Assembly (NCBI GenBank): GCA_963724765.1
Contig: CAVRVY010000003.1
Location: 608,001 to 672,000, forward strand
Source of the DNA: an uncultured delta proteobacterium
GTDB lineage: Bacteria > Desulfobacterota > Binatia > Binatales > Binataceae
Direction: 5' to 3'
Length of the DNA stretch: 64,000 bases
This document shows positions 15,323 to 62,602 of the stretch, in pieces (position 1 is the first letter of the stretch; every line of letters begins with the position of its first letter). The notes under the pieces were generated by a model, which saw only the letters and a program-made list of their open reading frames with translations, searched no databases and was not told the origin of the DNA. The translations under genes and the position numbers were made by a program.

Positions 15323-16870
15323 ATGGCCGAGCGCATCCACATCACGACCGCGATTTTCTACTGCAACGGCACGCCGCACGTCGGCAGTGCTTACGAGGCG
15401 CTCGCCGCCGACGTCTTCGCGCGCTACCAGCGGCGCAAGCTGGGACGCGAAAACGTGAGCTTCCTGAGCGGCACCGACGAGCACGGCGACAAAATTCGGC
15501 GCGCCGCGCTCGCCCAGGGGCTCAAGCCGCAAGCCTACACCGACAAGATGAGCGCGCTGTTCGACGAGGCCTTCCGCGGCCTCGGCGTCAGCTACGACTA
15601 CTGGGTGCGCACCACCGACGAGGTGCACCAGAAGTGGGTGCAGGAGATGCTGCGGCGCACGCACGCGCGCGGCGACATCTACTTTCGCAACTACGAGGGG
15701 TTGTATTGCGTCGATTGCGAGCGTTTCTATACCGAAAAGGAACTGCTGCCCGGCAACGTCTGTCCCACGCACAACCGCCCGGTGGAGCTCATCAGCGAGG
15801 GCAACTACTTCCTGCGTATCGAGAAATACCGCGAGCAGGTGCTGGAGCATATCCGCCGCAATCCCGATTTCATCCGGCCCGAGCGCTACCGCAAGGAGGC
15901 GCTCAACATGCTGTCCGAGCCGCTGACCGATCTCTGCATCTCGCGGCCCAAGGCGCGGCTGGATTGGGGAATCGAACTGCCTTTCGATTCCAACTACGTC
16001 ACCTACGTCTGGTATGACGCATTCTGGGCGTATGTCAGTCATCCGGCGACCAACGATCCCGATTTCGTCGAGCAGGTGTGGCCCCACACAGAGCATTTCA
16101 TCGGCAAGGATATTCTGAAGACCCACGCGGTGTATTGGCCGCCGATCCTGCTCGCCGCGGGGCTGCCGCTGTTCAAGCATCTCAATGTCCACGGATGGCT
16201 CAATTTCGGCGGCGCGAGGATGTCCAAAAGCTCGGGCAACGTGCGCGATCCGGTCTCCTACGAGCAGGCTTTCGGCGCCGACGTGCTGCGCTACTTCCTG
16301 ATGCGCGAGGTGGTCTACGGACTGGACGGCGATTTTTCCGAGGAGCGGCTGGTCGAACGCTACAACGCGGAGTTGGCCAACGACCTCGGCAATCTGAGCA
16401 GCCGGGTGCTCGCGATGGCGGGGCGGTATTTCAAGGGCGAGGTAACTGCGACGCCGGGCGCGGGCGGCGAGGAAATCGATCGCACACTCAGCGAGGAGTT
16501 TCGTGCGGCGCCCGCGCGCGCGGGCGCGATGGAGGACGAACTCGCGTTCAATCGCGGACTCGACGCGGTATGGCAGGTGCTGGATGCGGCCAACAAGTAT
16601 ATCGCCGCGACCGCGCCGTTTACGCTCGCCAAAGACCCGGACAAGCTGCCGCGCGTCGCACAGATACTAGCCAACCTGCTCGAGGGGTTGCGCGTGATCG
16701 CAGCCACGCTGGAGCCTTTCATGCCGCGGCAGGCGGCGAAGCTACTCGACCTGCTCGGCGTCGACGAGCCGGCAGCGTACGCGCCATTCGGCGCGGGACT
16801 CAAGCCCGGCGATCGCGTCAAGGCGCCGGTCGCGCTCTTCCCGCGAATCGATAAGACCGAACGCACGTAG
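15323..16870 (+). CDS. metG: Methionyl-tRNA synthetase (no C-terminal OB domain)
   Basis: PHVGSAY (HIGH), GTDEHG, RMSKSSGN (KMSKS), LFPRI end. Confidence 0.96.
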   Translation: MAERIHITTAIFYCNGTPHVGSAYEALAADVFARYQRRKLGRENVSFLSGTDEHGDKIRRAALAQGLKPQAYTDKMSALFDEAFRGLGVSYDYWVRTTDEVHQKWVQEMLRRTHARGDIYFRNYEGLYCVDCERFYTEKELLPGNVCPTHNRPVELISEGNYFLRIEKYREQVLEHIRRNPDFIRPERYRKEALNMLSEPLTDLCISRPKARLDWGIELPFDSNYVTYVWYDAFWAYVSHPATNDPDFVEQVWPHTEHFIGKDILKTHAVYWPPILLAAGLPLFKHLNVHGWLNFGGARMSKSSGNVRDPVSYEQAFGADVLRYFLMREVVYGLDGDFSEERLVERYNAELANDLGNLSSRVLAMAGRYFKGEVTATPGAGGEEIDRTLSEEFRAAPARAGAMEDELAFNRGLDAVWQVLDAANKYIAATAPFTLAKDPDKLPRVAQILANLLEGLRVIAATLEPFMPRQAAKLLDLLGVDEPAAYAPFGAGLKPGDRVKAPVALFPRIDKTERT

Positions 16871-16944
16871 CTTTCGACGCTGGTCTCAGAATCCGAAAAC
16901 GGGATCGACACCGTGCCGGCAGGTCAGCCCACCTGCGCGCTGGA

Positions 16945-17136
16945 TTACTGAAATCTGTGTCTTAGCTGCTCGATTGGTTCATCGACCACGAGGCTCAGGT
17001 CGCTGTCGAAGCAGACCTTCGTTTCCAATCGCTTTGATCCGTCATGCGCGAGCGACTCCACGCCCTCGAAGTACGCGATACGGTCGCTGTTTATCCAGAC
17101 TGACTGCCCACCTTTATTAAGCCTCACAAACGCCAT
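16945..17136 (-). CDS. Small hypothetical protein, FlbD-like pattern
   Basis: 63-aa ORF with globular composition (VWINSDRIAYFE...LVVDEPIEQL) in an A/T-richer patch. Confidence 0.55.
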   Translation of the reverse strand: MAFVRLNKGGQSVWINSDRIAYFEGVESLAHDGSKRLETKVCFDSDLSLVVDEPIEQLRHRFQ

Positions 17137-17386
17137 CTGCCGCTTCCGCCTTCTGTTCCTGGATTGGCCACCTCACGCAGGTGGCTCTTCACCCTTAAAG
17201 ATTGGCCGCGCACAATCAACACCTGCCAGTGTGTCGGTGTCCTGCGACGACCTTTACACAGCCCAAGCAGTCATTTTGGCCTCAGCGTGAATTTATTCTA
17301 AGGATGACCGAAGAAAAGAGCCTTATCGAAGAAGCGGACTCTCCTCGCTACGATGACCGGCTTCTTTTACGTGAACAATTGGCGCA

Positions 17387-18271
17387 TTACAGCTTCGCGG
17401 CCGCGTCAACCCACTTGCGCGCCGCTTCCTCGATACCCTTGGCGGCCTCTTCGGGCGTGCGCGGGGCTCGCATGTTGACGATCACGACCTCGTCGACGCC
17501 GGCATCGCGGTAGCGCGCAAGATCGTCGGGCGTGATCGGCTTGGTGTAGGGCGAAACCGCGAGCTCAACATCGGAACGCTTGCGGCCATTGGACTTGAGC
17601 AGCGACTCGATATGGCGAATTTTGTCCGCCGCCTCGCCGGGGTCGAGATTGAAACCGCACCATCCATTGCCATACTCGGCGACGCGGCGCAGCGCCGGGC
17701 CGCTCTCGCCGCCGAAGTAGACCGGCAGATTGGCGCCGCGCACCGGCTTGGGAAAGCTGCGGACGTTTTCGAAATTCACGAACTCGCCCTTATAAGAGCT
17801 GAGCGAGTCGCCCCACAACCGGCGCATCGCTTCGATATACTCGCGGGTGCGATGCGCGCGCCGCTCCCACGGGATTCCCAGCGCGCGGAACTCCTCCTCA
17901 AGCCACCCCACGCCAACGCCAAGCAGGAAGCGGCCTTCGCTCAGCGCATCGAGCGTCGCGACCACCTTGGCCAGCACCAGCGGATTGTGCTCGGGGACCA
18001 GGCAGATACCGGTGGCAAGGCGAATCTTCTCCGTTACCGACGCCATCGTGCACAGGGTCAGGAATGGATCGGCGATCGGCGCGTCGGCCGGCGCGGGCAA
18101 GGTGCCGTCGTCGCGGTAGGGATAGCGCGAGGCGTATGAATCGAGCAGCACCACGTGCTCGGGCGCCCACAGCGTCGAAAAGCCGGCCCGCTCGGCGCTC
18201 TGCGCGAACGCCTTCATCACCGCCATTCCACCCACCCGTCCCGAGACGACCGCGAAAAGTCCGACCTTCAT
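17387..18271 (-). CDS. LLM-class (probably F420-dependent) oxidoreductase
   Basis: TLWAPEHVV, LAKVVATLDALSEGRFLLGVGVGWLEEEF; AAGGAG RBS before the ATG. Confidence 0.9.
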   Translation of the reverse strand: MKVGLFAVVSGRVGGMAVMKAFAQSAERAGFSTLWAPEHVVLLDSYASRYPYRDDGTLPAPADAPIADPFLTLCTMASVTEKIRLATGICLVPEHNPLVLAKVVATLDALSEGRFLLGVGVGWLEEEFRALGIPWERRAHRTREYIEAMRRLWGDSLSSYKGEFVNFENVRSFPKPVRGANLPVYFGGESGPALRRVAEYGNGWCGFNLDPGEAADKIRHIESLLKSNGRKRSDVELAVSPYTKPITPDDLARYRDAGVDEVVIVNMRAPRTPEEAAKGIEEAARKWVDAAAKL

Positions 18272-21081: not shown

Positions 21082-22056
21082 TCAGACGTGGTTGCGCAGC
21101 ATCAGCTCGCGGGGATGCGGCTCGAGATAGGTTTGGCCCTTTAGATAGGCGATATCGAAGCGCCGCACCCAATGACGAATCAAGGTCAACGGCACCACCA
21201 GCGGCACCGTTGCGCGCCGATATTCCTCGATCACTTCGCCAAGCTCGCGGCGCGAATCGACGTCGCAACGATCGCGCAGATAGCCGGCGATATGCTGCAT
21301 CACGTTGACGTGGCGCGCCGGCGTAGCCAGCTTCTTCAGCGCCGTCATGAACTCCGCCGAGTAGCGCTCGCGCAGCTCGGCGCGCTCGATGCGCTTGGAC
21401 TGCGCCACCAGTCGTCCCAGTTCGGCATAAGCGCGCGGCGAGTGCGCCATCAGGGTCAGCTTGTGCGCGGTGTGAAAAGCCACCAGCGCGCCGACGGTCC
21501 ATCGGATGTTGCGGGTCGCGAACAGCGCGCGCATCCGATGGTACGCGAAGACCCGCTCGATGAAATTCTCGCGCAGATTCGGATCGTTCAGCCGCCCCTC
21601 CTCCTCGACCGGCAGATTGGGCAGGCGGCGTATCAGCGCCTCGGCGAACAGACCGCGCCCGTCGCGCACCGGCATCCCCGAGCGCCCATAGATACGTACC
21701 CGTTCCATCCCGCAGCTCGGCGAATCCTTCTTCAGCACGTAGCCCGAAAGATCTTCGCGCTCCAAGGCGGCGGCGCGGCGCTCTGCATAGGCGCTCATGA
21801 TTTCGGTCAGGTCGGCGCCGCTCTTGTTGGCGACCATCCGCACCGCGCCGTCGTCGCCGCGGACGAGCCTTAGACTCTCGCGCGGGATGCCGAGGCCGAT
21901 ATCGACCTCGGGGCAGACGGCGACGAATTCGACAAAATCGCCGAGCGTGCCGGTCAGGAAATCGTTGCGCTTATGGCCGCCGTCGAAGCGCACCTCCTGC
22001 CCCAGCAGACAGGAGGAGACGCCGATGCGGATTGCGTCCGAACCGCGGACATCCAT
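21082..22056 (-). CDS. YbgA family protein (DUF523 thiouracil desulfurase-like + DUF1722)
   Basis: IGVSSCLLG...RFDGGHK, CPEV, KKDSPSCG, YLEPHPRELMLRNHV. Confidence 0.92.
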   Translation of the reverse strand: MDVRGSDAIRIGVSSCLLGQEVRFDGGHKRNDFLTGTLGDFVEFVAVCPEVDIGLGIPRESLRLVRGDDGAVRMVANKSGADLTEIMSAYAERRAAALEREDLSGYVLKKDSPSCGMERVRIYGRSGMPVRDGRGLFAEALIRRLPNLPVEEEGRLNDPNLRENFIERVFAYHRMRALFATRNIRWTVGALVAFHTAHKLTLMAHSPRAYAELGRLVAQSKRIERAELRERYSAEFMTALKKLATPARHVNVMQHIAGYLRDRCDVDSRRELGEVIEEYRRATVPLVVPLTLIRHWVRRFDIAYLKGQTYLEPHPRELMLRNHV

Positions 22057-43704: not shown

Positions 43705-44868
43705 GTGAGCAGAGGAGAAACGCTCGAGGTCCGAGGCGACCTCCTACGATGGGCTCGTGAAACAGCCGGTTTCACGATCCCTGGAGCCGCAAAGAAGGCT
43801 CGTCTCAGCGCTGACAGGCTCGCCGAATGGGAGTCTGAGTATGGTCTGCCAACGCCTGGACAACTGGAGCATCTGGCCGATCTATACAAGCGCCCGACCG
43901 CTACGTTCTTCCTAGAGAGCCCGCCTACTGAACCGTCACTGCCTCCTGATTTTCGCACCCTTCCATCGGACGAGGGCATGGAATTCACCCCAGTCACGTT
44001 GTTCGCCATCCGACGTGCTAGGCGTCTCCAGACTGTATTCCTACAGGTCTCCGAGCTTGTGGTCGGACCGCGCCAAGAGACGCTAGAGATAGCACTCTCC
44101 GAAGGGGCCGGTCCGTCCGCGCAAAAAGCGCGCGACCGCCTGGCTATTCCCGTAGATCAACAGTTCTCGTGGAAAGATCCGCGCGTCGCGCTGAAGACTT
44201 GGAGAGCCGCGGTAGAAAGTACGGGTGTGCTCGTTTTTCAGTTCAGCTTTCCGCTCAGCGAGGCCCGCGGATTCTCACTGCCCGGCCGCGTATCCACGAT
44301 TGTCCTAAACTCCAAAGGCGCACCAGCAGCGCGTAGCTTCACGTTGTTTCACGAGTGGGCTCATTTGCTTTTGCGAGAGCCCGGAATCTGCATTCCAGAC
44401 GAGCGCCACGCCGCTACCCCTGGGGCAAATAAAGTGGAGTCTTTTTGCAATGCGTTTGCCGGCAATCTTCTGGTTCCACAAGCGATCCTCGAGGAGCGTT
44501 TCGCTTCTGGGCGCCAACTAGAGACAGCAGAATTTGTCAGCCAGCTTGCCGAGGAATTTGCAGTAAGTAAATTTGTCATTCTTCGAAGACTTCTTGATGT
44601 TAGGTTTCTCACGAACAGCGACTACCAACAGTTTTCTGGACAACTCAGTAAAGGCACCAGGTCCGACAATACAAAGAAGCGAAGCGGCGGGCCAAGCCCA
44701 GCAGTCAGGGTCGTCTCGGAACTTGGGCCGACGTTCACTTCGAGAGTGCTTGATGCGTACAACGCAGGAATGATTGACCCATCGCAAGTCTGTGATTACC
44801 TGTCCGTTAGGATTAAGCATGTGTCGAAGATCAACACTCTGCTTCCCCACGAGCAGCAACTGGGCTGA
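43705..44868 (+). CDS. XRE-HTH + ImmA/IrrE metallopeptidase
   Basis: LLRWARE HTH, PDFRT, FTLFHEWAHL (HExxH), ESFCNAFAGNLLVP. Confidence 0.88.
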   Translation: MSRGETLEVRGDLLRWARETAGFTIPGAAKKARLSADRLAEWESEYGLPTPGQLEHLADLYKRPTATFFLESPPTEPSLPPDFRTLPSDEGMEFTPVTLFAIRRARRLQTVFLQVSELVVGPRQETLEIALSEGAGPSAQKARDRLAIPVDQQFSWKDPRVALKTWRAAVESTGVLVFQFSFPLSEARGFSLPGRVSTIVLNSKGAPAARSFTLFHEWAHLLLREPGICIPDERHAATPGANKVESFCNAFAGNLLVPQAILEERFASGRQLETAEFVSQLAEEFAVSKFVILRRLLDVRFLTNSDYQQFSGQLSKGTRSDNTKKRSGGPSPAVRVVSELGPTFTSRVLDAYNAGMIDPSQVCDYLSVRIKHVSKINTLLPHEQQLG

Positions 44869-44874
44869 AGCAGC

Positions 44875-45342
44875 GTGTATGTCATCGACACAAGCTCTTT
44901 GATTGACCTCGGCCTGCACTATCCGCGCGATACCTTTCCGTCAGTATGGAATGAAACAGAAGTTTTGATAAAGCGAGGAACCCTCCTATCTCCTCGCGAG
45001 GTCTTGCGAGAGTTGGAAAGGGGCGACGATCAATTGGTTCGCTGGGCTAAGCGTCAGAAGGGATTCTTTGTGCCGGTAAATCGGCCGCAAACAGTCAGGA
45101 TAAGAGAGATTCAGCAGAGATTCCCGCAAATCACCGACAACATGGCACTCGGACCATGCGCGGATCCATGGCTCGTGGCACTGGCTACCGTTCTGTCCGG
45201 GCCTCACTCCGCTTGGTTCGTAGTCACTCAGGAGCGCATGGCCGGCCCCGGCTCACACAAGGTTCCGAACGTTTGCGCGGCTTTTGGAATAACGAGCTTA
45301 AATCTTCTCGATTTTTTCAGAGCCGAAGGGTTTAAGTTTTAA
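44875..45342 (+). CDS. DUF4411 family PIN-domain protein
   Basis: YVIDTSSLI, YPRDTFPSVW, EVLREL, ADPWLVA, VVTQE, KVPNVC. Confidence 0.85.
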   Translation: MYVIDTSSLIDLGLHYPRDTFPSVWNETEVLIKRGTLLSPREVLRELERGDDQLVRWAKRQKGFFVPVNRPQTVRIREIQQRFPQITDNMALGPCADPWLVALATVLSGPHSAWFVVTQERMAGPGSHKVPNVCAAFGITSLNLLDFFRAEGFKF

Positions 45343-52754: not shown

Positions 52755-52830
52755 GCCACCCTAGCTCAGTTGGTAGAGCAGCTGATTCGTAATCAGCAGG
52801 TCGTCGGTTCGAATCCGACGGGTGGCTCCA
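52755..52830 (+). tRNA. tRNA-Thr (CGT)
   Basis: Cloverleaf: GCCACCC/GGGTGGC acceptor stem, GCTGA-TTCGTAA-TCAGC anticodon arm, TTCGAAT loop, encoded CCA. Confidence 0.98.
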
Positions 52831-53919: not shown

Positions 53920-54462
53920 CTATCCACGCTCGACACTGGCTAATGATGGACCATTGTAGTGATAGTCTTGGCGACACGCCTGCATCAGCGCGCGCATATC
54001 TTGCCGGAGTTCCTCGAGCGTCGGCCGCCCAACAAACCACCAACCCTCATAGATCGCGTGGATCGTCAGGTCAGGAGCCAGGGAAAAGGTATAGGGAAGG
54101 GCGACCAGGCCGTATCTGAAATCCGGTGGGGTCACTTCCACGATATCGAGTTGCCGGATGGCCCGACGCTCGTGGTCACTGAGAAACGTATACGTCGCAG
54201 CCAGTCCGGCGCGGAAGGCCGCGCTCACTTCTGGCGGGTCGGTGCTGACGACGGCCAGCTTACAGTAGTTGACCTGCAAGTCCTCTTGTAATTCGACGAA
54301 GCGCCGCAACTGCAGCGCGCATTTCGGTCACCAATAGCCACGGTAGAAGCTCAGGATCAGCGGAAAGCCACTCGCCAGTTCAGACAGCGTGATCAGTTGC
54401 TGCCGATGATCGGGTACCGTCAAGTCCGGGAATCGTTTGCCCACAGCGAGATCGGAATGCAT
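53920..54462 (-). CDS. AhpC/TSA-like redoxin, probable selenoprotein (UxxC)
   Basis: AAGGAG RBS; MHSDLAVGKRFPDLTVPD...LILSFYRGYW-TGA-PKC continues in frame into the 53920 ORF; TGA at 54328-54330; SECIS-like hairpin follows. Confidence 0.85.
54301..54327 (-). promoter_or_regulatory. Putative bacterial SECIS element
   Basis: UGA-CCGAAAUGC-GCGCUGC-AGUU-GCGGCGC: 7-bp stem, apical loop with G at position 2, 16 nt between UGA and loop. Confidence 0.7.
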
Positions 54463-54514
54463 AGGCATCTCCTTTCATGTCATAGCAACCGTCAATGGCG
54501 GCTGAGCGGTTTTC

Positions 54515-55510
54515 CTAATGTGACCGAAACAACGCCACCAGAAAATAGCGCCGAGCGTCAAACCAGGTACGACGCAGAACGAGATTGGCCCGGTATCCTA
54601 AGTCACGGACTTCGTTCGGAGAATACTTATACGAACTTTCCGTATGAATCGTTTCATCTTTGCGAAACGATATGGCTTGCTCGATCTTGGCGATGGGCAC
54701 GTGCTGAGGCAGCCGGCTGCGGAGGTGCATCTCAATACGGCCCCTCTCAGCGTTGTAGAGGGCCACGTGCTCAAAGGTTTGCGGGTCAAACCGCCCGCCA
54801 AGTTCATAATTAATACGGTGGAGTACATTCTTGTTGAACGCAGCCGTGACGCCTTGGGCGTCGTCATAGGCCGGGACGAGGATCGCGGGCGATTTTTTCA
54901 GGTCGATACCCAGCAGAAAGACGTCCTCAGGTCCCAGAATGGCCGCCATACGCCGGAGGAACTCGACACTTTCTTCAGGCGTGAAGTTCCCCAGACTGGA
55001 CCCGAAAAAGGCCACGGCTTTCTTCTCCAGTTGAAACGCCTGAATGACCTCCGATTCTCCCGCGAAATCGGTATGCATGGCACGAATCTCAATATGGGTA
55101 AATTCCTGCAGGAGTCGGTTGGCCGTGTCCAAGAGGATTTCTCGAGAAATGTCTACCGGACAATAGCGAAACGGTTGCTCCGCCCGTTCATACGCCGTGA
55201 GGAGGTAACGGGTCTTTCTGGCATACCCGGAGCCGAACTCCACCAGCGCCAGGTGACCAATCTCGGCATGTATCTCGGCGGCATAGGTGCTGAGAATCTC
55301 CAATTCTGCCCGGTAGAGATAGTACTCGGGTAAGGCGCAAATCTGCTCGTAGAGTTGAGAGCCGCGCTCGTCATAAAAATACTTCGGCGGCAGCCATTTT
55401 TGTGGGGCGGTTAGGCCAAACGCCACGTCCCGCGCAAAGGCGTGCCGGTGCACCGCTACATCCATGTCATGAAACTGAAATCGCTTGTTGGGAATGGCCT
55501 CGGTCTCCAT
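54515..55510 (-). CDS. egtD: Histidine N-alpha-methyltransferase EgtD-like
   Basis: LPPKYFYDERGSQL, LPEYY, VEFGSG, AYDDAQGVTAAFNKNVL, IHTESSYKY. Confidence 0.9.
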   Translation of the reverse strand: METEAIPNKRFQFHDMDVAVHRHAFARDVAFGLTAPQKWLPPKYFYDERGSQLYEQICALPEYYLYRAELEILSTYAAEIHAEIGHLALVEFGSGYARKTRYLLTAYERAEQPFRYCPVDISREILLDTANRLLQEFTHIEIRAMHTDFAGESEVIQAFQLEKKAVAFFGSSLGNFTPEESVEFLRRMAAILGPEDVFLLGIDLKKSPAILVPAYDDAQGVTAAFNKNVLHRINYELGGRFDPQTFEHVALYNAERGRIEMHLRSRLPQHVPIAKIEQAISFRKDETIHTESSYKYSPNEVRDLGYRANLVLRRTWFDARRYFLVALFRSH

Positions 55511-55601
55511 GGCTATCCCTTACCACGATCTCAAACCCATCGTCGTGGTTGACTCGCTTGGACAAATCGTAGGCGCGCTGGCCCACTTTGGGGCGTAGAG
55601 C

Positions 55602-56942
55602 TTACTCTCGGATCGTTCTGGCGAGCCGGATCCCCATGAACTGCCATCGGACATCGGCAGGGAAAAAGTTCCGATAAGTGGGCCGGATATGCGAAATCGA
55701 GGTCGCACACGACCCGCCGCGCAACACAAACTGGTTGGCCATAAATTTGCCGTTATACTCCCCCAACGCGCCTGGGGATGCGGTGTACCCGGGATAGGGG
55801 GAATAGTGACTTTGGGTCCACTCCCAAACGTCTCCAAAAATTTGGACCAGCGGGACAGCGCTGTCGATCTGACTGATGGGGACGGGATGGAAAGCTTGCT
55901 GCTCAACGAAATTACCCCTAATCAGCAGAGGCATCGCCGCAACTTCCCATTCGGCCTCGGTGGGCAAGCGCGCATCGGCCCAACGTGCGTAGGCGTCCGC
56001 TTCGTAATAACTGACATGACACACGGGTTCGGCTTCCCGCACGGATCGCATCCCGGCAAGGGTCATCATCCACCAGGTGCCATCGCGTTGTTCCCAATAC
56101 AGCGGAGCCTGCCACCCTTCGCGCCGGACCGTATCCCAACCCATGGACAGCCATAGCTCCGGCCGTTCATACCCCCCATCGGCCATGAAGGCCAAGTACT
56201 CCCCGTTGGTGACCAGCCGCGACGCCAACTCGAACCGCTCGACAAAGCTCCGATGTCGAGGGAACTCATTATCGAAGGCGAAACTCTGACCCTCGTGGCC
56301 AATCCAGTAGACGCCTTCGAGAAAGCTCACCCATCGGAGTGGGCCCACCGTCGGTACACTTGTGGGGATGTCGGCGGTTACATACGTAGGTCGCAGTGGG
56401 TTGCAGGCGAAGTTGTATTTCACGTCGGTCAAGAGAAGTTCTTGATGCTGTTGTTCATGGTGCAAGCCGAGCTCGACGACCGGAGACCAGCGCTCGAGCG
56501 TCTCGCCATGTAAACCTTCCAAAAAGGCGGTCATATGCTGGTCGACATGGGCTCGATAGCGATAGACCTCCTCAACGGCTGGACGTGAGAGTAGCCCCCG
56601 TTTGGGGCGGCAATGCCGCTCACCAGCCGCCACGTAATAGGAATTGAAGAGATACGCATAGGAGGGATGCGGCGATCTATAGCCCGGAGAAGCCAGGGCC
56701 AGAATAAAGGTTTCGAAAAACCAACTCGTGTGTGCCAGATGCCACTTAGGGGGGCTCACATCCGGCATGCCCTGAATGACGTAATCTTCCGTCATCAAAG
56801 GCTGGCAGAGTCGGTCGGTAAACTGTCGCACCTGATGGTAACGCCTGACAAGGGCCTCGTGGTGGGCAGTCTCAGCGAGACCATAGAGGACAGTTGCGCG
56901 ATGAATATTGTGATTGATGGGCACATTGCTCTCCTCTTCCAC
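55602..56942 (-). CDS. egtB: Ergothioneine sulfoxide synthase EgtB (type II-like)
   Basis: SPPKWHLAHT, LFNSYY, GLHHEQQHQELL Fe ligands, FGE domain, GALGEYNGKFM. Confidence 0.92.
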   Translation of the reverse strand: MEEESNVPINHNIHRATVLYGLAETAHHEALVRRYHQVRQFTDRLCQPLMTEDYVIQGMPDVSPPKWHLAHTSWFFETFILALASPGYRSPHPSYAYLFNSYYVAAGERHCRPKRGLLSRPAVEEVYRYRAHVDQHMTAFLEGLHGETLERWSPVVELGLHHEQQHQELLLTDVKYNFACNPLRPTYVTADIPTSVPTVGPLRWVSFLEGVYWIGHEGQSFAFDNEFPRHRSFVERFELASRLVTNGEYLAFMADGGYERPELWLSMGWDTVRREGWQAPLYWEQRDGTWWMMTLAGMRSVREAEPVCHVSYYEADAYARWADARLPTEAEWEVAAMPLLIRGNFVEQQAFHPVPISQIDSAVPLVQIFGDVWEWTQSHYSPYPGYTASPGALGEYNGKFMANQFVLRGGSCATSISHIRPTYRNFFPADVRWQFMGIRLARTIRE

Positions 56943-56976
56943 TTGTCTTCACCTCGACACCCAGATAGCCGCCTCC

Positions 56977-57633
56977 TCAGCCTCGCGATTCTCGCACGAG
57001 ATCCACCAACTCGCCAAAGCTTTCGATGACGTGGTCCGGTGCGCACTGCAACAGCGCTTCCCGCGTGCCAAAGCCGTAGGTGACGGCACAGGTCTTGGTG
57101 CCGGCTGCCTTCCCTGCCAGGACATCGGCAGGGGTATCGCCGACCATCAGCGCGTGTGGCGGCGCACAGTGCAACACGGCGAGGGCCGCAAGTATGGTGT
57201 CGGGGGCGGGCTTGAGGCGCAGACCAGGGCTACCACCTTGAATGTGCTGGAAGAAGGGAATCAGGGCCAGCCGCCGCAAGACGATCTCCGCTTGCCCTGA
57301 CTCTTTGGTGGTGACGACGCCGAGCGTAAAGGTGGACAAGGCCTGTAAGGTGAGGATAACCCCAGGGTAGGGTCGGGTCAGGCAGGCGTCCTGCCGGGTA
57401 TATGTGCGGCGGTATGCGGTCAGGAAGGCGCTGAGCAGCGGGGGTGACAACATACCCCCGAGCTCGCTGAGCATCTTGGCGAGTGGCTTGCCGATGTGCT
57501 GGGCAATCGCGGTGGCGCTGGGCGGAATCCCACCAACCACAGTCCGCCAGGCGTTCTGAAACGCCACAGCGATGTCGCGCCGGGAATCGACCAGCGTGCC
57601 ATCGAGGTCACACAAGATGGTGGTGATTGTCAT
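56977..57633 (-). CDS. HAD family phosphatase (phosphoglycolate phosphatase-like)
   Basis: DLDGTLVDS, VVTTK, KPAP, MVGDTPADV. Confidence 0.9.
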   Translation of the reverse strand: MTITTILCDLDGTLVDSRRDIAVAFQNAWRTVVGGIPPSATAIAQHIGKPLAKMLSELGGMLSPPLLSAFLTAYRRTYTRQDACLTRPYPGVILTLQALSTFTLGVVTTKESGQAEIVLRRLALIPFFQHIQGGSPGLRLKPAPDTILAALAVLHCAPPHALMVGDTPADVLAGKAAGTKTCAVTYGFGTREALLQCAPDHVIESFGELVDLVRESRG

Positions 57634-57956
57634 GATCTTTCCTCGCGCCCAAGCCTCCTCTTTCATGCCCCTATCAAGCCATTACCTCAGGCCATCGCAT
57701 CTCCCGCTGCAGGCTGCGGTAACACCCAAGGCACGACATACGTAGGTAGCTACAAACTCAGCAGAGTCGAGCAATACCAACAATGGCTGCGCACGTCGGT
57801 GGAACATATCTATTCGTTACCATCGCGGCTGATTGGCGAACGGGTTACCGTACGCGATCGGGCGTATAATCCGCTCGCTGGTGCGCAGCCGGCAAGAATA
57901 ATTGTCGCTGATCGGCAAAAAACAATTCATCGCTGTACATTCTAAAATCGGTGCCC

Positions 57957-59273
57957 ATGCGCAACGCCATATTCTATCTCACGTACAATGGGCTCTATAA
58001 CTTCACCAATGGCATCGGCACGCAAACCCAGCTCCTGATCAGCGGCCTCGAAGTACTGCGGGAGATGCTGGTCAGACGGTATGGCCCCATCGACGTGCAT
58101 GTGGTCTGCCCCTCGCCCGATGTGCATACCTGGGGCTATGATCACGCCTTCTTTCTGCGGCAGCAAGAACGTCTGGCGCCACTCGGTGGGCAGGTGCACC
58201 TCATTCCGTACAAGCGGGAACCCACCCAAGATCTCTGGGAAATCCCTTCCTGGAGGGCCCTCTGTCAGAACGTCGCACCGCTGTTGCATACCCAAGCGGC
58301 GGCCTATGAGCGGTCGTTGATCATTTGTGTGGACCAGCCTTGGTTGCAGACGCCTTATGCGCTTGGAATGGCCCAAAGCCTTCCGCGTCAGGTCGATACG
58401 CTCTTGGTGCTCTATAGCACCGCGTTTATCCGGGACTGGGAGACGCCTGATGCGGCAGAGGTTGCCTGGGAACAAGAAGGGCTTGAGGCGTCACAGCCCG
58501 GTTCGCGGGTAGCGCTTGCCGACATTTGCCCGTCGTTTACCTCGCACCTCAAGACGCACTTCCGGCTGTCGGCGGGAAAGTTCGCGCCTTACACTTCGAG
58601 CATCCTCGTGGACGACCCCGACTTTGTCTTGCAGGACGAGACGGTCGTGCGCACAACGCTGCAGGCCTATGGCATCCCCCTCGATGCGGACCTGGTGTTG
58701 GCATTTGGCAGGGCTGCACCCATCAAAGGATTTGAGCGGCTCATTCCCGCCCTTGCGCCGCTGCGTGACCGGGTGCATTTCGTTCTCATCTCGGTACCCT
58801 ACATCAATGACGACTCGCAACAACGGGTGTATGACCAACTGCTGCAACAACACGCCATACGGGCAACCCACATCAAGGTGTTTACGCGTGATTTACCCCG
58901 TTCCCTATGCCAATGGGCTCGGACGAAAATAGTGATGGTCCCGTCCAGACACGAGACCTTCTCCAATATCCCGCTCGAAGTCGCGTTGTGGGCGCGCGAA
59001 AAGGGGCCCGTCATTGTGGCCTCGACAGCCGGTGGGTTCGCTGATCAAATCCAGCCAGGTATCACGGGATTTCTTGTCGATATCTTGTCTTGTCAGCACG
59101 TCACCCAGACGCTGCACCAAGTGCTCGATCTCTCCCCACAGGCCCAGGCCATCATTCGGCATCGGGCGCATCAACGGATTGTCCAGACATATGACTTCAT
59201 ACACAATTTTCCGGCGACCCTCCGTTGGTTTTGGCAGAGGGGGCCTCGGAGACCGGGCCAGCACGTGCGCTGA
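57957..59273 (+). CDS. GT-B fold glycosyltransferase (GT4-like), unusual N-terminal domain
   Basis: NGIGTQ loop, AFGRAAPIKG, VPSRHETFSNIPLE, GITGFLV. Confidence 0.85.
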   Translation: MRNAIFYLTYNGLYNFTNGIGTQTQLLISGLEVLREMLVRRYGPIDVHVVCPSPDVHTWGYDHAFFLRQQERLAPLGGQVHLIPYKREPTQDLWEIPSWRALCQNVAPLLHTQAAAYERSLIICVDQPWLQTPYALGMAQSLPRQVDTLLVLYSTAFIRDWETPDAAEVAWEQEGLEASQPGSRVALADICPSFTSHLKTHFRLSAGKFAPYTSSILVDDPDFVLQDETVVRTTLQAYGIPLDADLVLAFGRAAPIKGFERLIPALAPLRDRVHFVLISVPYINDDSQQRVYDQLLQQHAIRATHIKVFTRDLPRSLCQWARTKIVMVPSRHETFSNIPLEVALWAREKGPVIVASTAGGFADQIQPGITGFLVDILSCQHVTQTLHQVLDLSPQAQAIIRHRAHQRIVQTYDFIHNFPATLRWFWQRGPRRPGQHVR

Positions 59274-59353
59274 AGCTGACAGGGAGCACGAGTCAATACG
59301 GTGGAGGATGTTGCGAGGGTTTCGCCATAAGCGTGCCGACTGCCGTGAGCTTC

Positions 59354-60160
59354 TCAGGGGAACTGAGCCGGCCGGCCGTCAGGCTCCAGGATGGCGTTCA
59401 GGCGCTGGCAGGAGGCGATGACTTCATCGGCATAACCGGGAAACCAGGCATGCATCCACATGGGACGCTCGAAAAACGCTTGGGGCGGCTGCTCCGGGTG
59501 TCGAATGCCAACGCGCATCACCAACCCGCTGGCGTTGATGAAACTCACATCGTCCAGCAAGCGGCCGGGCGCCATAAATCCGATCGCAATGGAGCATAAC
59601 CCCGCGATACCCACCAGCGATGCCGCGACACCTCGCAGGCAAAAGGCCTGAGTGTGGGCCCGTACCTCTGCAGGCAGCGCCAGTAAAACCGTGCGCATCG
59701 TCAAGCCGGAAAAGACCGTATCATCAACCACCGCCAGGGAGGATACCGTTTCAAGAGGCGGTAGCTGTTGCGCTAAGGGGATCCCGGTAGTCGTGACGAC
59801 GTTATAGCTACCGTGGCCATCTTCTTCACGGGTGATGTCCACGCGTGAGATCTTGGGGAACCAGCCTGTGTGCGCGTGTAGTTGTTGCGCGACACGTTCA
59901 CCGGCTCGACCGATGCCGATCGCCAGCGCAAAGGGGGCATACTTGTCGTCCGCCAGTAATGGCGCCATTTGAGACTCAAGAGTGAGCAGTACAACCCGCC
60001 TTGGGTCCCGGCACACAAGCGCGAAGAAGTCCCGCGTGAGATGCCAGGCCGGCGTTTCCTGCCCGTGGTGCCGAGAGACATAATCGCTGAGATCGTCGTG
60101 AATATATAATACCTTCGGGGTCGGCGCGGCGTAGGGCTCTGCACCCTTCATGGTCCTCAT
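59354..60160 (-). CDS. Phosphoribosyltransferase-fold protein (PyrR/UPRT-like motifs)
   Basis: GIGRAG loop, VDITREED, AVVDDTVFSGLT PRPP-binding motif; start uncertain (60151-60193). Confidence 0.7.
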   Translation of the reverse strand: MRTMKGAEPYAAPTPKVLYIHDDLSDYVSRHHGQETPAWHLTRDFFALVCRDPRRVVLLTLESQMAPLLADDKYAPFALAIGIGRAGERVAQQLHAHTGWFPKISRVDITREEDGHGSYNVVTTTGIPLAQQLPPLETVSSLAVVDDTVFSGLTMRTVLLALPAEVRAHTQAFCLRGVAASLVGIAGLCSIAIGFMAPGRLLDDVSFINASGLVMRVGIRHPEQPPQAFFERPMWMHAWFPGYADEVIASCQRLNAILEPDGRPAQFP

Positions 60161-60620
60161 CTTCCTTCGCGACGGCAGATGGCGCCGCCCCATGGCTACT
60201 CGGAATACACCCGAGAGGTGTTACTATAGTGCATGCCATCGCATGGCGGAGTGGTTCGCCTGTGCCCGAAGATGGATCAATCTCCAGCGGCATCGCAATC
60301 CGCAGTTGCAGCACCCCACTAGAGTGTATCGTTTAAAAAGTACAGGGCCTATCATGCCAAGCAGCGACACGCCCCTTTCCCGAACTGTAAAGGGGTACAA
60401 TTCATGAAAAAGATCACCGTAATAATACCAAGCTATAACAATCGCCAATGGTATGAGCGTAACCTCTCTTCTGTCGCTCACTCTCGACGGTGTTCGCGCC
60501 GGACGTCATGGTCGATCGGCCGCGTGGGTGCTTAGTTCGATCATCTCTGGCCGAATTGCAAATGGAGAAGGACTCGTTGGGGGATGCGGCAGTCCGATGC
60601 GAACCGCTCTCTCCGGGTTC

Positions 60621-61030: not shown

Positions 61031-62602
61031 GTGCATTGCTTCAGCTGTGGCTCTGGGAATGCAGAGACTGCGAAATTCTGCGATGAGTGCTCAGCACTGC
61101 TCTCTCTGCTGTGTCCTGCCTGCGGTAGAGCGAATCGGACGAACGCGAAATTCTGCAGCGGGTGCGCCACTTCGCTCGGAGCCGCCGCGCCGCGTCCAGC
61201 GGAGAGGTCGCACCCTCCATCTTTATCAATCACGACCGCCGCGGATCCCAATTCTTGCAGCGCCGAGGGTGAGCGGCGTCACTTATCCGTGCTGTTCTGT
61301 GACTTGGTAGGTTCGACCGGAATAGCAGCCAACCTTGATCCTGAAGACTGGCGCGAAACCCTAACCAGCTATTACCGCACCGCAACAGAAGCAATCGTGC
61401 GGTTCGGCGGATATGTCGCCCAATTTCTCGGAGACGGCCTATTGGTCTTCTTTGGTTACCCCGAGGCGCATGAGGACGATCCGCAGAGAGCGGTGCTTGC
61501 AGGGCTTGCGATCCTTAATGGGATGCGTGCGCTGAACAGCCGCATTGCGAACGACCGGTTACCTAAGCTCGCGGCGCGGATCGGGATACACAGCGGATCT
61601 GTGGTCGCAGGCGAGAGCAACGGCAAGGGAGCTAATGTGTTCGGCGACGTTCCCAACCTCGCTTCTCGGGTGCAGACCGCGGCAGCCCCCGACACGGTCC
61701 TGATAACCGCGGCTGTACATCACCTCGTGTCCGGACTTTTTGTGGTCGAAGATCGAGGTGAGCAACAGCTCAAGGGCGTCGAGCAACCGATTCGGTTGTT
61801 CCGCGTTATCCAGCCTAGCAGAGCGCGGGGCCGACTCGCTGCCGCGGCTGTTCAAAGACTAACATCTTTTGTCGGCCGCGAGGACGAATTGCGTTTCCTC
61901 CTGAACCGCTGGGATCAGGTGCGAGAGGGAGAGGGTCAGGTAGTGCTGGTACTAGGCGAAGCGGGAATTGGAAAGTCCCGCCTCGTCGAGCGTTTTCGTG
62001 AACAGATCGCGGATGATCCACATACCTGGGTTGAATCCGCGGCCGCCTTGTTACACCAGAACACACCCTTCTACACAGTGGAGGACATGCTGCAGCAGGG
62101 ATTGCGCTGGCGCGGTGAGCAGAGCGCGGACGAGCGCATTGCCGGACTCGAAGCATCCCTCAAGCTGGCGGGCGTCAAGCTCAGCGAAGCGGTTCCGCTA
62201 ATAGCGCCACTTATGAAACTGACGATTCCTGAAAGATACCTGCCGTCGCAAATGCCACCGGATCAACAGCGTAAGCGGCTTTTGGCGATAATCGGCGCGT
62301 GGGCATTCGGAACAGCACGAATCCAGCCACTCGTAATCGTGATTGAGGACCTGCATTGGGCCGATCCGTCAACCCTAGACAGAGCTGATGAACCATGGAG
62401 CCAAAGTTCAAAGCCGCTGCCAGACTGTACGGGTGGGACAGTTAAGCAAGGCAAACCTGAAAACATCAGGGCGACGCTCCCCCACATCTATGGCTGGTTT
62501 AGGGAGGGCTTTGACACTGCTGATTTAAGAGAAGCCAAAGCGCTGCTCGAGGAAAATCTGCCAGCGGCGGAGGAACTGAAGATTTCGCGACCAGAGACTT
62601 GA
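61031..62602 (+). CDS. Double zinc ribbon + class III nucleotide cyclase + partial AAA ATPase (internally deleted)
   Basis: CxxC pairs, ERRHLSVLFCDLVGST, GDG, GEAGIGKS, EDLHWAD; jumps to the family C-terminus IYGWFREGFDTADLREAKALL. Confidence 0.8.
   Translation: MHCFSCGSGNAETAKFCDECSALLSLLCPACGRANRTNAKFCSGCATSLGAAAPRPAERSHPPSLSITTAADPNSCSAEGERRHLSVLFCDLVGSTGIAANLDPEDWRETLTSYYRTATEAIVRFGGYVAQFLGDGLLVFFGYPEAHEDDPQRAVLAGLAILNGMRALNSRIANDRLPKLAARIGIHSGSVVAGESNGKGANVFGDVPNLASRVQTAAAPDTVLITAAVHHLVSGLFVVEDRGEQQLKGVEQPIRLFRVIQPSRARGRLAAAAVQRLTSFVGREDELRFLLNRWDQVREGEGQVVLVLGEAGIGKSRLVERFREQIADDPHTWVESAAALLHQNTPFYTVEDMLQQGLRWRGEQSADERIAGLEASLKLAGVKLSEAVPLIAPLMKLTIPERYLPSQMPPDQQRKRLLAIIGAWAFGTARIQPLVIVIEDLHWADPSTLDRADEPWSQSSKPLPDCTGGTVKQGKPENIRATLPHIYGWFREGFDTADLREAKALLEENLPAAEELKISRPET

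Follow-up and report, generated by a model that had tools for sequence, protein, structure and literature searches.

The DNA analyzed here is a stretch of 64,000 nt (the window; contig CAVRVY010000003.1, positions 608,001 to 672,000) from an uncultured member of the Binataceae, and our subject is a block of genes around egtB and egtD, which code for enzymes of ergothioneine (EGT) biosynthesis. The block was examined from position 53,920 to 60,193 (Table 1). Four genes, coding for a HAD-type phosphatase, EgtB, EgtD and a redoxin with a selenocysteine (Sec) residue, form a co-oriented run with intergenic gaps of 34, 91 and 52 nt. A glycosyltransferase (GT) gene is divergent from the HAD gene, separated from it by a spacer of 284 nt, and is convergent with the gene of a protein that has the fold of phosphoribosyltransferases (PRT), with a stop-to-stop distance of 80 nt. 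The open reading frame (ORF) of the PRT-fold protein opens at position 60193, and the start found in relatives corresponds to M15 of that ORF. A sequence-only reading of the window had proposed that the six genes form one island-borne system that makes EGT and then ribosylates and/or glycosylates it. The positions and orientations that it gave agree with the ORF listing and the translation. It is also correct that selD, egtA, egtC and egtE do not occur in the window; selD is found elsewhere in the genome.

Table 1. Features of the ergothioneine gene block and its edges (positions in the window).
Feature	Position	Strand	Evidence or remark
tRNA-Thr(CGT)	52755..52830	+	inner edge of the region non-syntenic with close relatives
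AhpC/TSA-fold redoxin, selenoprotein (180 aa)	53920..54462	-	Pfam AhpC-TSA 75.8 bits, cut-off 26
SECIS-like hairpin, 7-bp stem, loop AGUU	54301..54318	-	begins 12 nt 3' of the UGA
egtD, histidine N-alpha-trimethyltransferase	54515..55510	-	TIGR03438 362.2 bits; Pfam Methyltransf_33 366.6 bits
egtB, non-haem-iron sulfoxide synthase	55602..56942	-	TIGR03440 577.8 bits
HAD-IA phosphatase, lead gene of the HAD-egtB-egtD-redoxin run	56977..57666	-	HAD_2 109.2 bits
LmbT-like GT-B glycosyltransferase, candidate ergothioneine S-glycosyltransferase	57951..59273	+	Glycos_transf_1 36.9 bits; LmbT homology
PRT-fold protein, unannotated family (265 aa)	59354..60151	-	type I PRT fold match
GT2 gene, 5' remnant, 78 codons	60243..60475	+	tblastn with the intact GT2 of locus L019

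EgtD and EgtB qualify as members of TIGR03438 and TIGR03440 (cut-offs of 290.9 and 360 bits, respectively), while EgtB stays below the cut-off of the SenA model NF041186 (336.9 bits against 420). This egtB is the only one in the genome. No match at cut-off to EgtA, EgtC or EgtE was found in the whole genome, which is 96.98% complete. In other bacteria, EgtB and EgtD suffice for ergothioneine when the host provides a lyase.

That GT, PRT and HAD genes might be unlinked to egtBD elsewhere had been defined beforehand as the refutation test of the proposal. This test was run on two samplings of loci, and linkage holds in both of them. The first one is centred on the PRT gene and comprises 80 loci from species-representative genomes and the window itself (81 in total), which were compared by gene clustering and by Pfam searches with the cluster representatives; 57 of these loci are well flanked, with at least 2.5 kb on either side. 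Lineage names are those of the record titles, and many of the loci stem from kin, so that the counts are not independent. EgtD occurs in 68 of the 81 loci (50 of the 57 well-flanked ones) and EgtB in 62 (50), followed by an EgtU-like fusion of OpuAC and permease (37 and 26), the redoxin (22 and 20), the GT (18 and 17) and the HAD phosphatase (16 and 15). The genomes with linkage to egt genes are Binataceae-like or belong to Entotheonella, Rokubacteria and Dehalococcoidia. The PRT gene adjoins egtD, mostly on the same strand and with gaps down to 13-40 nt. The common order is PRT, GT (opposite strand), HAD, EgtB, EgtD, redoxin in the Binataceae-like genomes, EgtB, EgtD, PRT followed by a convergent transporter in Rokubacteria/Methylomirabilota, and EgtB-EgtD-PRT in Dehalococcoidia. 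Clustering did not reveal EgtD in 13 loci, 7 of which have less than 2.5 kb on at least one side (six short contigs). In L037, egtD was missed by clustering and gave a 39% match by tblastn, and in L032, L061, L062, L083 and L090, all with full 10-kb flanks, egtD was found neither by clustering nor by tblastn. Some PRT loci have a DinB_2 gene alongside or no recognisable neighbour. Thus, the tightest linkage of the PRT-fold gene is to egtD and egtB, and the widest conserved core is EgtB-EgtD-PRT, often accompanied by the EgtU-like ABC transporter.

Oxidoreductase genes were also encountered in this sample. A fusion of a cNMP-binding domain with a pyridine-nucleotide-disulfide oxidoreductase is encoded directly 3' of EgtB in L042 (5087-6868, minus strand) and in related Rokubacteria loci, and about 20 loci have a molybdopterin oxidoreductase and a FAD (DAO) oxidoreductase upstream. 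These oxidoreductases might constitute a reductase system that acts on the thioimidazole or on the redoxin.

The second sample consists of 80 metagenome loci which were found with the GT alignment. In 59 of these, egtD or a closely related egtB is present, and the remainder are short contigs; when at least 3 kb are available upstream, egtD or egtB is found in every case (37 of 37). When the sample is narrowed to the 20 loci that extend at least 5 kb upstream and at least 1.5 kb downstream, egtD and the redoxin are present in all 20, and PRT, HAD and egtB each occur in 18. PRT and HAD are jointly present in 18 of the 20 loci and jointly lacking in the other two. These counts indicate that egtD and the redoxin are the closest partners of the GT. 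A third type of locus, with a GT of 58-61% identity (for example L177, L184 and L185), carries redoxin, egtD and GT only; no PRT, HAD or EgtB gene was found there on contigs of up to 13.6 kb. In two loci of this minimal type (L184:3065-8144 and L185:5406-10451) an MDMPI_N (DinB-like) gene is located two genes downstream. Thiol exchange enzymes of the LmbV type are DinB-like.

The GT and the HAD phosphatase are additions in one clade, the Binataceae-like genomes, and the GT occurs also in Entotheonella. The idea of a single six-gene system is partly supported: linkage to egtBD holds in other genomes, but the GT and HAD genes are outside of the widest conserved core. A richer cluster was seen in an Entotheonella locus (L034:4474-15089), where an LmbT-like GT, a luciferase-like monooxygenase, a GFO/IDH/MocA oxidoreductase and the PRT gene occur together with a GT1, an EgtB-like gene, a GT2, EgtD and the redoxin.

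We consider it quite improbable that the locus is devoted to plain EGT while the GT, PRT and HAD genes are unrelated passengers on an island. Such a view can refer to the sufficiency of EgtB, EgtD and a host lyase in other bacteria, and to the position of the cassette within a variable region of low G+C content. However, the linkage survives across phyla, rearrangements and differing flanks, and the GT is homologous to an enzyme that binds EGT.

This enzyme is LmbT, which the sequence-only reading had cited as an analogy only and which turned out to be a true homologue, whether judged from sequence profiles or from the fold. All PDB sequences were searched with a profile built from 17 GT sequences (A4). 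LmbT (8ixp/8ixq, 8il0/8ila) matches over profile positions 6-420 with an E-value of about 1e-15, whereas the next matches (sucrose-phosphate synthase and MshA, about 1e-7) are restricted to the C-terminal half. With the AlphaFold model of the GT (mean confidence score pLDDT 72.3), the best 6 Foldseek rows are LmbT chains from 4 entries (E-values of 4e-25 to 6e-23, TM-scores of 0.72-0.82), followed by GlgM, BshA, MshA and sucrose-phosphate synthase at about 1e-14 (the next one at 8e-15). LmbT thus leads the other GT4 enzymes by about ten orders of magnitude. That the top entries are LmbT of Streptomyces lincolnensis was taken from the Foldseek titles and from a review which cites 8ILA (PMC12945683). 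Identity to LmbT is about 20%, and the Pfam and NCBIfam matches of the GT are C-terminal and of GT1 type only. Judged from profile and model, the homology of the GT to LmbT spans the full length and includes the acceptor domain at the N-terminus, and LmbT is its closest solved protein.

According to the same review (PMC12945683), R260 of LmbT contacts the diphosphate of GDP as well as the carboxylate of EGT, W101 makes a cation-pi contact with the trimethylammonium of EGT by stacking on it, and the guanine pocket is formed by W258, T289, R290 and Q313. Residue pairs were read from the alignment to the hidden Markov model (HMM); the numbering of 8IXP agrees with that of the review at G27, Y31, W101, S222, W258 and R260. 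R260 aligns to R254 of the GT, which is invariant across the 17 A4 sequences, and W258, S222 and G27 align to F252, S217 and G21. W101 falls on L95, one residue before the invariant W96, as far as the HMM alignment alone can tell. The octose sub-pocket of LmbT is not kept, with Y31 being replaced by Q. As R254 and other residues are kept while the guanine pocket is lost, the acceptor side of the GT appears to be LmbT-like and its nucleotide side not.

A GT next to an EgtB homologue and a selD gene in the genome also call to mind selenoneine biosynthesis, where a GT would make a chalcogen sugar in the manner of SenB and this would serve as sulfur or selenium donor for the EgtB homologue. Known sen clusters do pair an EgtB homologue with a GT-B enzyme, and GT1-type genes near such synthases are tabulated as SenB (PMC13674229, Table 1). 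We nevertheless regard this as very improbable. SenB is not among the 10 NCBIfam families that the GT matches at an E-value of 0.01 or better, LmbT heads the fold ranking, and the SenB entry 8RZ3 (described in PMC11237966) is not among the best 49 Foldseek rows. In addition, EgtB scores 578 bits on the EgtB model but only 337 on SenA, and selD is located about 0.8 Mb away beside selB, serving Sec synthesis. A SenB-like reading of the GT was rejected on the basis of the NCBIfam result and the fold ranking.

The relation to LmbT leads to another alternative, namely that EGT is a sugar carrier as in lincomycin synthesis: S-glycosyl-EGT would be an activated intermediate, the sugar would be passed on, and EGT would be released unmodified, while the PRT-fold protein, the HAD phosphatase and the GT2 of related loci would build or process the sugar part. 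LmbT works in this way and its reaction is reversible, as stated in PMC12945683. Extra GT genes in relatives (the GT2 in L019; GT1, GT2 and sugar oxidoreductase-like genes in the Entotheonella locus L034) would fit, as would the DinB-like or MDMPI_N genes near L061, L184 and L185. However, the DinB-like neighbours are confined to these 3 loci, there is no conserved cassette gene for a final acceptor scaffold or a thiol-exchange enzyme, and the block has only 6-7 genes and moves as a unit. We consider a sugar carrier unlikely.

We prefer to see EGT as the substrate that is itself decorated, and this directs attention to the PRT-fold protein. In a word-index search with this protein, the best 120 of 1456 homologues are 76-97% identical and are all called 'hypothetical protein' at their source. 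A profile search of 1.84 billion proteins returned 172 representatives, and the 150 of these which are listed have at most 329 aa. Matches in the protein atlas are to 'hypothetical protein' clusters only, mostly from Methylomirabilota. No NCBIfam match was obtained, and profiles of the PRT family gave nothing significant against PDB sequences (best E-values of 0.12 and 0.15). No match was found in 200 other genomes of the same phylum, which says little, as just 1 of these genomes is from the family and 4 are from the class in question. A fusion of EgtD and PRT (P0122, 514 aa) proved to be an artefact, as about 95 EgtD-like residues are followed by low-complexity out-of-frame text and then by the PRT part. 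The search gave no other extended version of the protein.

The fold was revealed by a structure model (pLDDT 74.8). VIA-align superimposes it on HGXPRT with a Z-score of 12.7 (158 residues aligned, root mean square deviation of 3.2), and the top 33 rows (Z-scores of 12.7-8.1) are all type I PRTs or synthetases of phosphoribosyl pyrophosphate (PRPP). Foldseek lists UPRT, purine PRT and XPRT at E-values of about 1e-4. The PRPP-binding loop of such enzymes is characterized by a hydrophobic run, two acidic residues and a stretch of small residues with G-x-T. A stretch that resembles this loop is highly conserved in the family: among 36 sequences that come from several phyla, D143, D144, G149 and T151 show no variation, and T145, F147 and S148 are conserved in at least 90% of them. 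Also invariant in these sequences are the A-G pair in G-I-G-R-A-G-E, C171 and many aromatic residues. Weak matches to Pribosyltran occur in 28 of the 36 family members (best E-value of 4e-6). According to its model, the protein adopts the fold of type I PRTs, and it represents an unannotated family; the transferase activity is putative.

The HAD protein contains the motifs DLDGT and GDTPAD in its translation and exceeds the cut-off of HAD_2 (23.8 bits) by a wide margin. It stays below the cut-offs of the more specific NCBIfam models (PpaX, 132.6 bits against 218; phosphoglycolate phosphatase, 129.8 against 225).

The PRT-fold protein might also be a ligand-sensing or regulatory partner of the egt genes, similar to PyrR or PurR or a sensor of nucleotides or PRPP, with the GT being the sole tailoring step and the HAD protein a generic phosphatase or pyrophosphatase. 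Regulators are indeed found among its fold matches, the Pribosyltran score is below the Pfam cut-off, and neither Pfam nor NCBIfam detected a transcription factor in the cassette. Furthermore, the best NCBIfam match of the HAD protein is the pyrophosphatase PpaX, likewise below cut-off. On the other hand, the PRPP-loop-like stretch keeps its two acidic residues and its G..T without exception across phyla, as expected of a site for ribose-5-phosphate, no nucleic-acid-binding domain was detected in the PRT-fold protein, and the gene is placed inside the egtB-egtD operon like that of a pathway enzyme. We thus consider a regulatory role unlikely and favor an enzymatic one.

The redoxin becomes complete when the TGA at 54328-54330 is read as Sec (U). 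The resulting AhpC/TSA protein has U45 within W-U-P-K-C. TGA and the in-frame conserved N-terminal peptide are present in 22 of 22 related genome loci, and TGA with coding sequence conserved on either side in all 32 metagenome loci that could be evaluated, 3 further loci being lost to contig ends. The genome codes for the Sec machinery, with selD (388 bits), selB (383 bits), selA (561 bits) and a tRNA-SeC with anticodon tca. The selD gene of this genome (L001, G000:C3:1462704-1463630), which selB directly adjoins, has an in-frame TGA and is thus itself a selenoprotein gene.

Among the best 120 of 1771 homologues of the redoxin there is no full-length Cys form. The length of these 120 proteins is 109-136 aa, compared with about 180 aa for the complete form, and their coverage of the query is 56-72%, because gene callers begin after the TGA. 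The public calls of the relatives (P0273-P0392) are systematically shortened at the Sec codon, and the name given by JGI is 'peroxiredoxin'. The hairpin that resembles a Sec insertion sequence (SECIS) has a counterpart at this place in 20 of the 21 distinct relatives; the z-scores are weak (-3.3 to 0). It holds in two registers, and one of its base pairs switches from CG to UA in 5 distinct sequences, this being the only compensated pair. RNAalifold on 23 sequences did not recover the hairpin and gave other weak structure with 0 compensated pairs. The Sec redoxin of the sequence-only reading is strongly supported as a selenoprotein by the TGA in 54 of 54 readable relatives and by the Sec machinery of the genome.

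Boundaries of the cassette were defined by comparison to close relatives. The nucleotide homology ends at about 53,899 and, inside a GT2 gene, at 60476, and the flanks of the relatives are different from each other. Of 16 other genomes in the genus, 5 carry the PRT gene, and several of those which lack it are 94-96% complete; it was found neither in 8 other genera of the family nor in 16 genomes of the class. In three relatives, YchF and MetRS are 92-96% identical and the cassette proteins 89-96%, which fits vertical descent within the genus. In two other genomes the cassette is conserved above the level of housekeeping genes (83-89% against 63-77% for YchF/MetRS in G204, 74-86% against 37-43% in G205), and this argues for transfer between distant hosts. 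The sequence comparisons thus support that the block from 53.9 to 60.5 kb is an accessory, horizontally moving cassette.

A classical island which has integrated at a tRNA gene could not be demonstrated, so that only the mobile, accessory nature of the block remains from its description as island-borne. The ychF-side flanks of three relatives of the same genus, on the side of the tRNA-Thr, were compared with positions 45,000-83,000 in window numbering. The only flank match of at least 200 nt is one of 227 nt around the tRNA-Thr in G201, and the other two relatives have none. No direct repeat of the tRNA-Thr 3' end of at least 14 nt was found within 30 kb. The nearest tyrosine integrase gene, accompanied by an HTH_17 (excisionase-like) gene, is about 26 kb away (L104:14751-16781, equivalent to about 78.7-80.8 kb in the window numbering). 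This integrase site, where the G+C content returns to host level, may be the far end of a variable region that starts at the tRNA-Thr.

The G+C content is 0.565-0.598 over 54-60 kb but 0.62-0.68 over 46-52 kb, in line with the non-host composition which had been claimed for the block. In 1-kb bins it remains at 0.53-0.61 up to about 79 kb (window-equivalent), the sole exception being 0.645 at 70 kb, so that the anomaly is wider than the cluster and not confined to it.

An intact version of the GT2 (299 aa) is encoded in locus L019 (9012-9911), divergent from the PRT gene. The remnant in the window is 94% identical to it over residues 46-78 and 53% over residues 1-51 (tblastn). The GT2 is also present in 11 other genome loci, with an identity of 66-96% in 8 of them and of 27-33% in the three from Entotheonella. 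A further 24 metagenome loci match it, 19 along most of the length and 5 in part. In L019, long ORFs without family assignment are located right after the redoxin stop (16329-17897) and read like insertion-sequence remnants.

Each of the six genes is covered in part by contigs from RNA libraries (4 soil libraries of 4 studies) with an identity of at least 88%. Among the 222 contigs, 72 have at least 95% identity, and several contigs bridge the egtD-redoxin junction and the TGA. These contigs are from relatives and may include DNA, and they are blind to strand, level and single transcripts, so transcription is not proven by them; bins without such contigs carry no meaning.

Several further features of the window were noticed. 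An Rfam scan of the window matched the tRNA only. A protein of 523 aa (61031-62602, plus strand) combines zinc-ribbon, adenylate-cyclase and AAA_16 domains; its C-terminus is seemingly cut short, and its match to the TOMM kinase/cyclase model (189 bits, cut-off 706) is limited to positions 278-652 out of 1267. A gene pair coding for Peptidase_M78 (IrrE-like) and DUF4411 (43705-45339, plus strand) is located in a patch of low G+C content (0.54-0.59) and resembles a toxin-antitoxin or defence-type pair. In the part of the window with host composition, a 2-thiouracil desulfurase domain is fused to DUF1722 (21085-22056, minus strand), which is another thione-handling enzyme.

Turning to the function of the cassette, we give about equal weight to belief and doubt in a pathway that makes EGT and then tailors it, by S-glycosylation and probably also by ribosylation through the PRT-fold and HAD proteins. 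The identity of EgtD and EgtB, the homology to LmbT, the PRT fold and the Sec codon come from tests made here, and all substrates and products are inferred. By family membership, EgtD would trimethylate histidine to hercynine and EgtB would couple hercynine with a thiol and O2. As neither EgtA nor EgtC was found in the genome, cysteine is the probable thiol. A C-S lyase encoded elsewhere would then release EGT. The LmbT-like GT would use the thione sulfur of EGT as nucleophile on a nucleoside diphosphate sugar, which leads to S-glycosyl-EGT; the donor is probably not GDP-linked, since the guanine pocket of LmbT is not kept. The PRT-fold enzyme would transfer ribose-5-phosphate from PRPP to the thioimidazole (N or S) of EGT or of a close precursor. 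Its fold neighbours phosphoribosylate the lactam N-H of uracil and of 6-oxopurines, groups which resemble the thione N-H of EGT. The HAD phosphatase would remove the 5'-phosphate, and the UxxC selenoprotein may reduce oxidised EGT species, either the sulfenic acid of the lyase step or a disulfide. In relatives, the GT2 would attach a second sugar. That EgtB-EgtD-PRT is the widest core suggests that the PRT step is older and more general.

There are several points which speak against such a pathway. The PRT-fold protein reaches only 20.2 bits on Pfam PF00156 (Pribosyltran), below the gathering cut-off of 26.3, and with PyrR, PurR and a ppGpp-binding protein among its matches it must be kept in mind that PRT folds also serve regulators and ligand binders. 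The PRT and HAD proteins need not be a pair, as HAD is absent from most lineages that carry the PRT gene, and their co-occurrence was seen among kin and is thus not independent. T289, R290 and Q313 of the guanine pocket of LmbT are D, D and F in the GT, and with this pocket lost and an identity of about 20% the acceptor could also differ. The SECIS evidence is modest. The copy in the window may be decaying, as its GT2 is truncated. Finally, S-glycosylation would block the thiol, which puts an antioxidant role of the product in doubt.

From the sequence evidence as a whole, the product of the cassette is probably a still undescribed sugar-decorated ergothioneine. It is possible, but must be considered doubtful, that the cassette represents a new class of ergothioneine glycoconjugates (S-glycosyl-EGT and (phospho)ribosyl-EGT) with a dedicated selenoprotein which keeps the thioimidazole reduced. 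If this is true, the PRT-fold protein would be the first PRPP-dependent thioimidazole phosphoribosyltransferase and a third widely conserved 'Egt' family (Rokubacteria, Dehalococcoidia, Entotheonella, Binataceae), and the GT would be the first EGT S-glycosyltransferase of the LmbT type outside of antibiotic synthesis. Ergothioneine is usually regarded as a finished metabolite; in many uncultured soil bacteria it would then not be the end product but a building block. The predicted products, if they exist, would establish a new branch of thio-imidazole natural products and would provide a reason for the exchange of the cassette among soil bacteria.

Three testable gene families are added to ergothioneine biology, the LmbT homologue, the PRT-fold family and the Sec redoxin. 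The GT is a homologue of the only known ergothioneine glycosyltransferase and is hard-wired to egtD. In several uncultured phyla, no other family accompanies egtD as consistently as the PRT-fold family, which, having no model, is missed by domain-based surveys. A 2026 survey of synthase-neighbour genes (PMC13674229) describes tailoring of thio-imidazoles as exceedingly rare, with LmbT as the sole earlier example. The survey names families by CDD identifiers, and its Table 1 has no PRT family and files GT1 genes under SenB. The PRT family may be missing from the table because Pfam and NCBIfam have no model of it. In full-text literature, with subscription journals and supplements outside the scope, no paper was found in which egtBD is accompanied by a PRT, by a Sec redoxin or by an LmbT homologue, and none describes this combination.

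When the cassette is compared to known systems, canonical ergothioneine clusters (the mycobacterial egtABCDE and the two-gene egtBD) share with it EgtD and EgtB above cut-offs, adjacent and co-oriented. They differ in that no EgtA, EgtC or EgtE match at cut-off exists in our genome and that the PRT-fold protein, the Sec redoxin, the LmbT-like GT and HAD are extra conserved partners. The senABC cluster for selenoneine similarly has an EgtB-family enzyme adjoining a GT-B enzyme in a selenium-using organism. However, by NCBIfam the GT described here is not SenB and the synthase is not SenA, SenC is not adjacent, and selenium appears as Sec in a protein. The NHISS-ATP-grasp clusters for actinothioneine and thioglutine, as described in PMC13674229, also combine a thio-imidazole synthase with clustered tailoring enzymes, but the tailoring enzymes of our cassette are of glycosyl and phosphoribosyl type and not ATP-grasp enzymes.

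The same comparison can be made for the individual proteins. The redoxin resembles Sec-containing AhpC/Prx-like and SelL-related proteins in its thioredoxin fold and in having U as the first residue of a UxxC motif. It reaches only 34.8 bits on the SelL-related model (cut-off 120) and, unlike the AhpC/Prx-like proteins, is tied to egtD in 54 loci, with database calls being shortened 'peroxiredoxins'. The PRT-fold protein shares the fold (Z-scores up to 12.7) and a PRPP-loop-like motif with type I PRTs (UPRT, HGXPRT, APRT, OPRT). It differs from these by belonging to an isolated family (172 representatives) with no significant PRT match at the sequence level, with extra N- and C-terminal elements, invariant aromatic residues and one invariant Cys, and by its egt context. 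In contrast to LmbT/CcbT (PDB 8IL0, 8ILA, 8IXP, 8IXQ), the GT is found beside egtBD in a cassette of 6-7 genes of uncultured soil bacteria and not in a lincosamide cluster, there are no GDP-octose genes nearby, and at about 20% identity the residues of the guanine and octose pockets are lost. Nevertheless, the two share homology over the full GT-B length, the arginine that bridges diphosphate and EGT carboxylate, an aromatic side chain at the position of W258, and the E-x7-E motif; the HMM alignment places an invariant Trp within one residue of W101.

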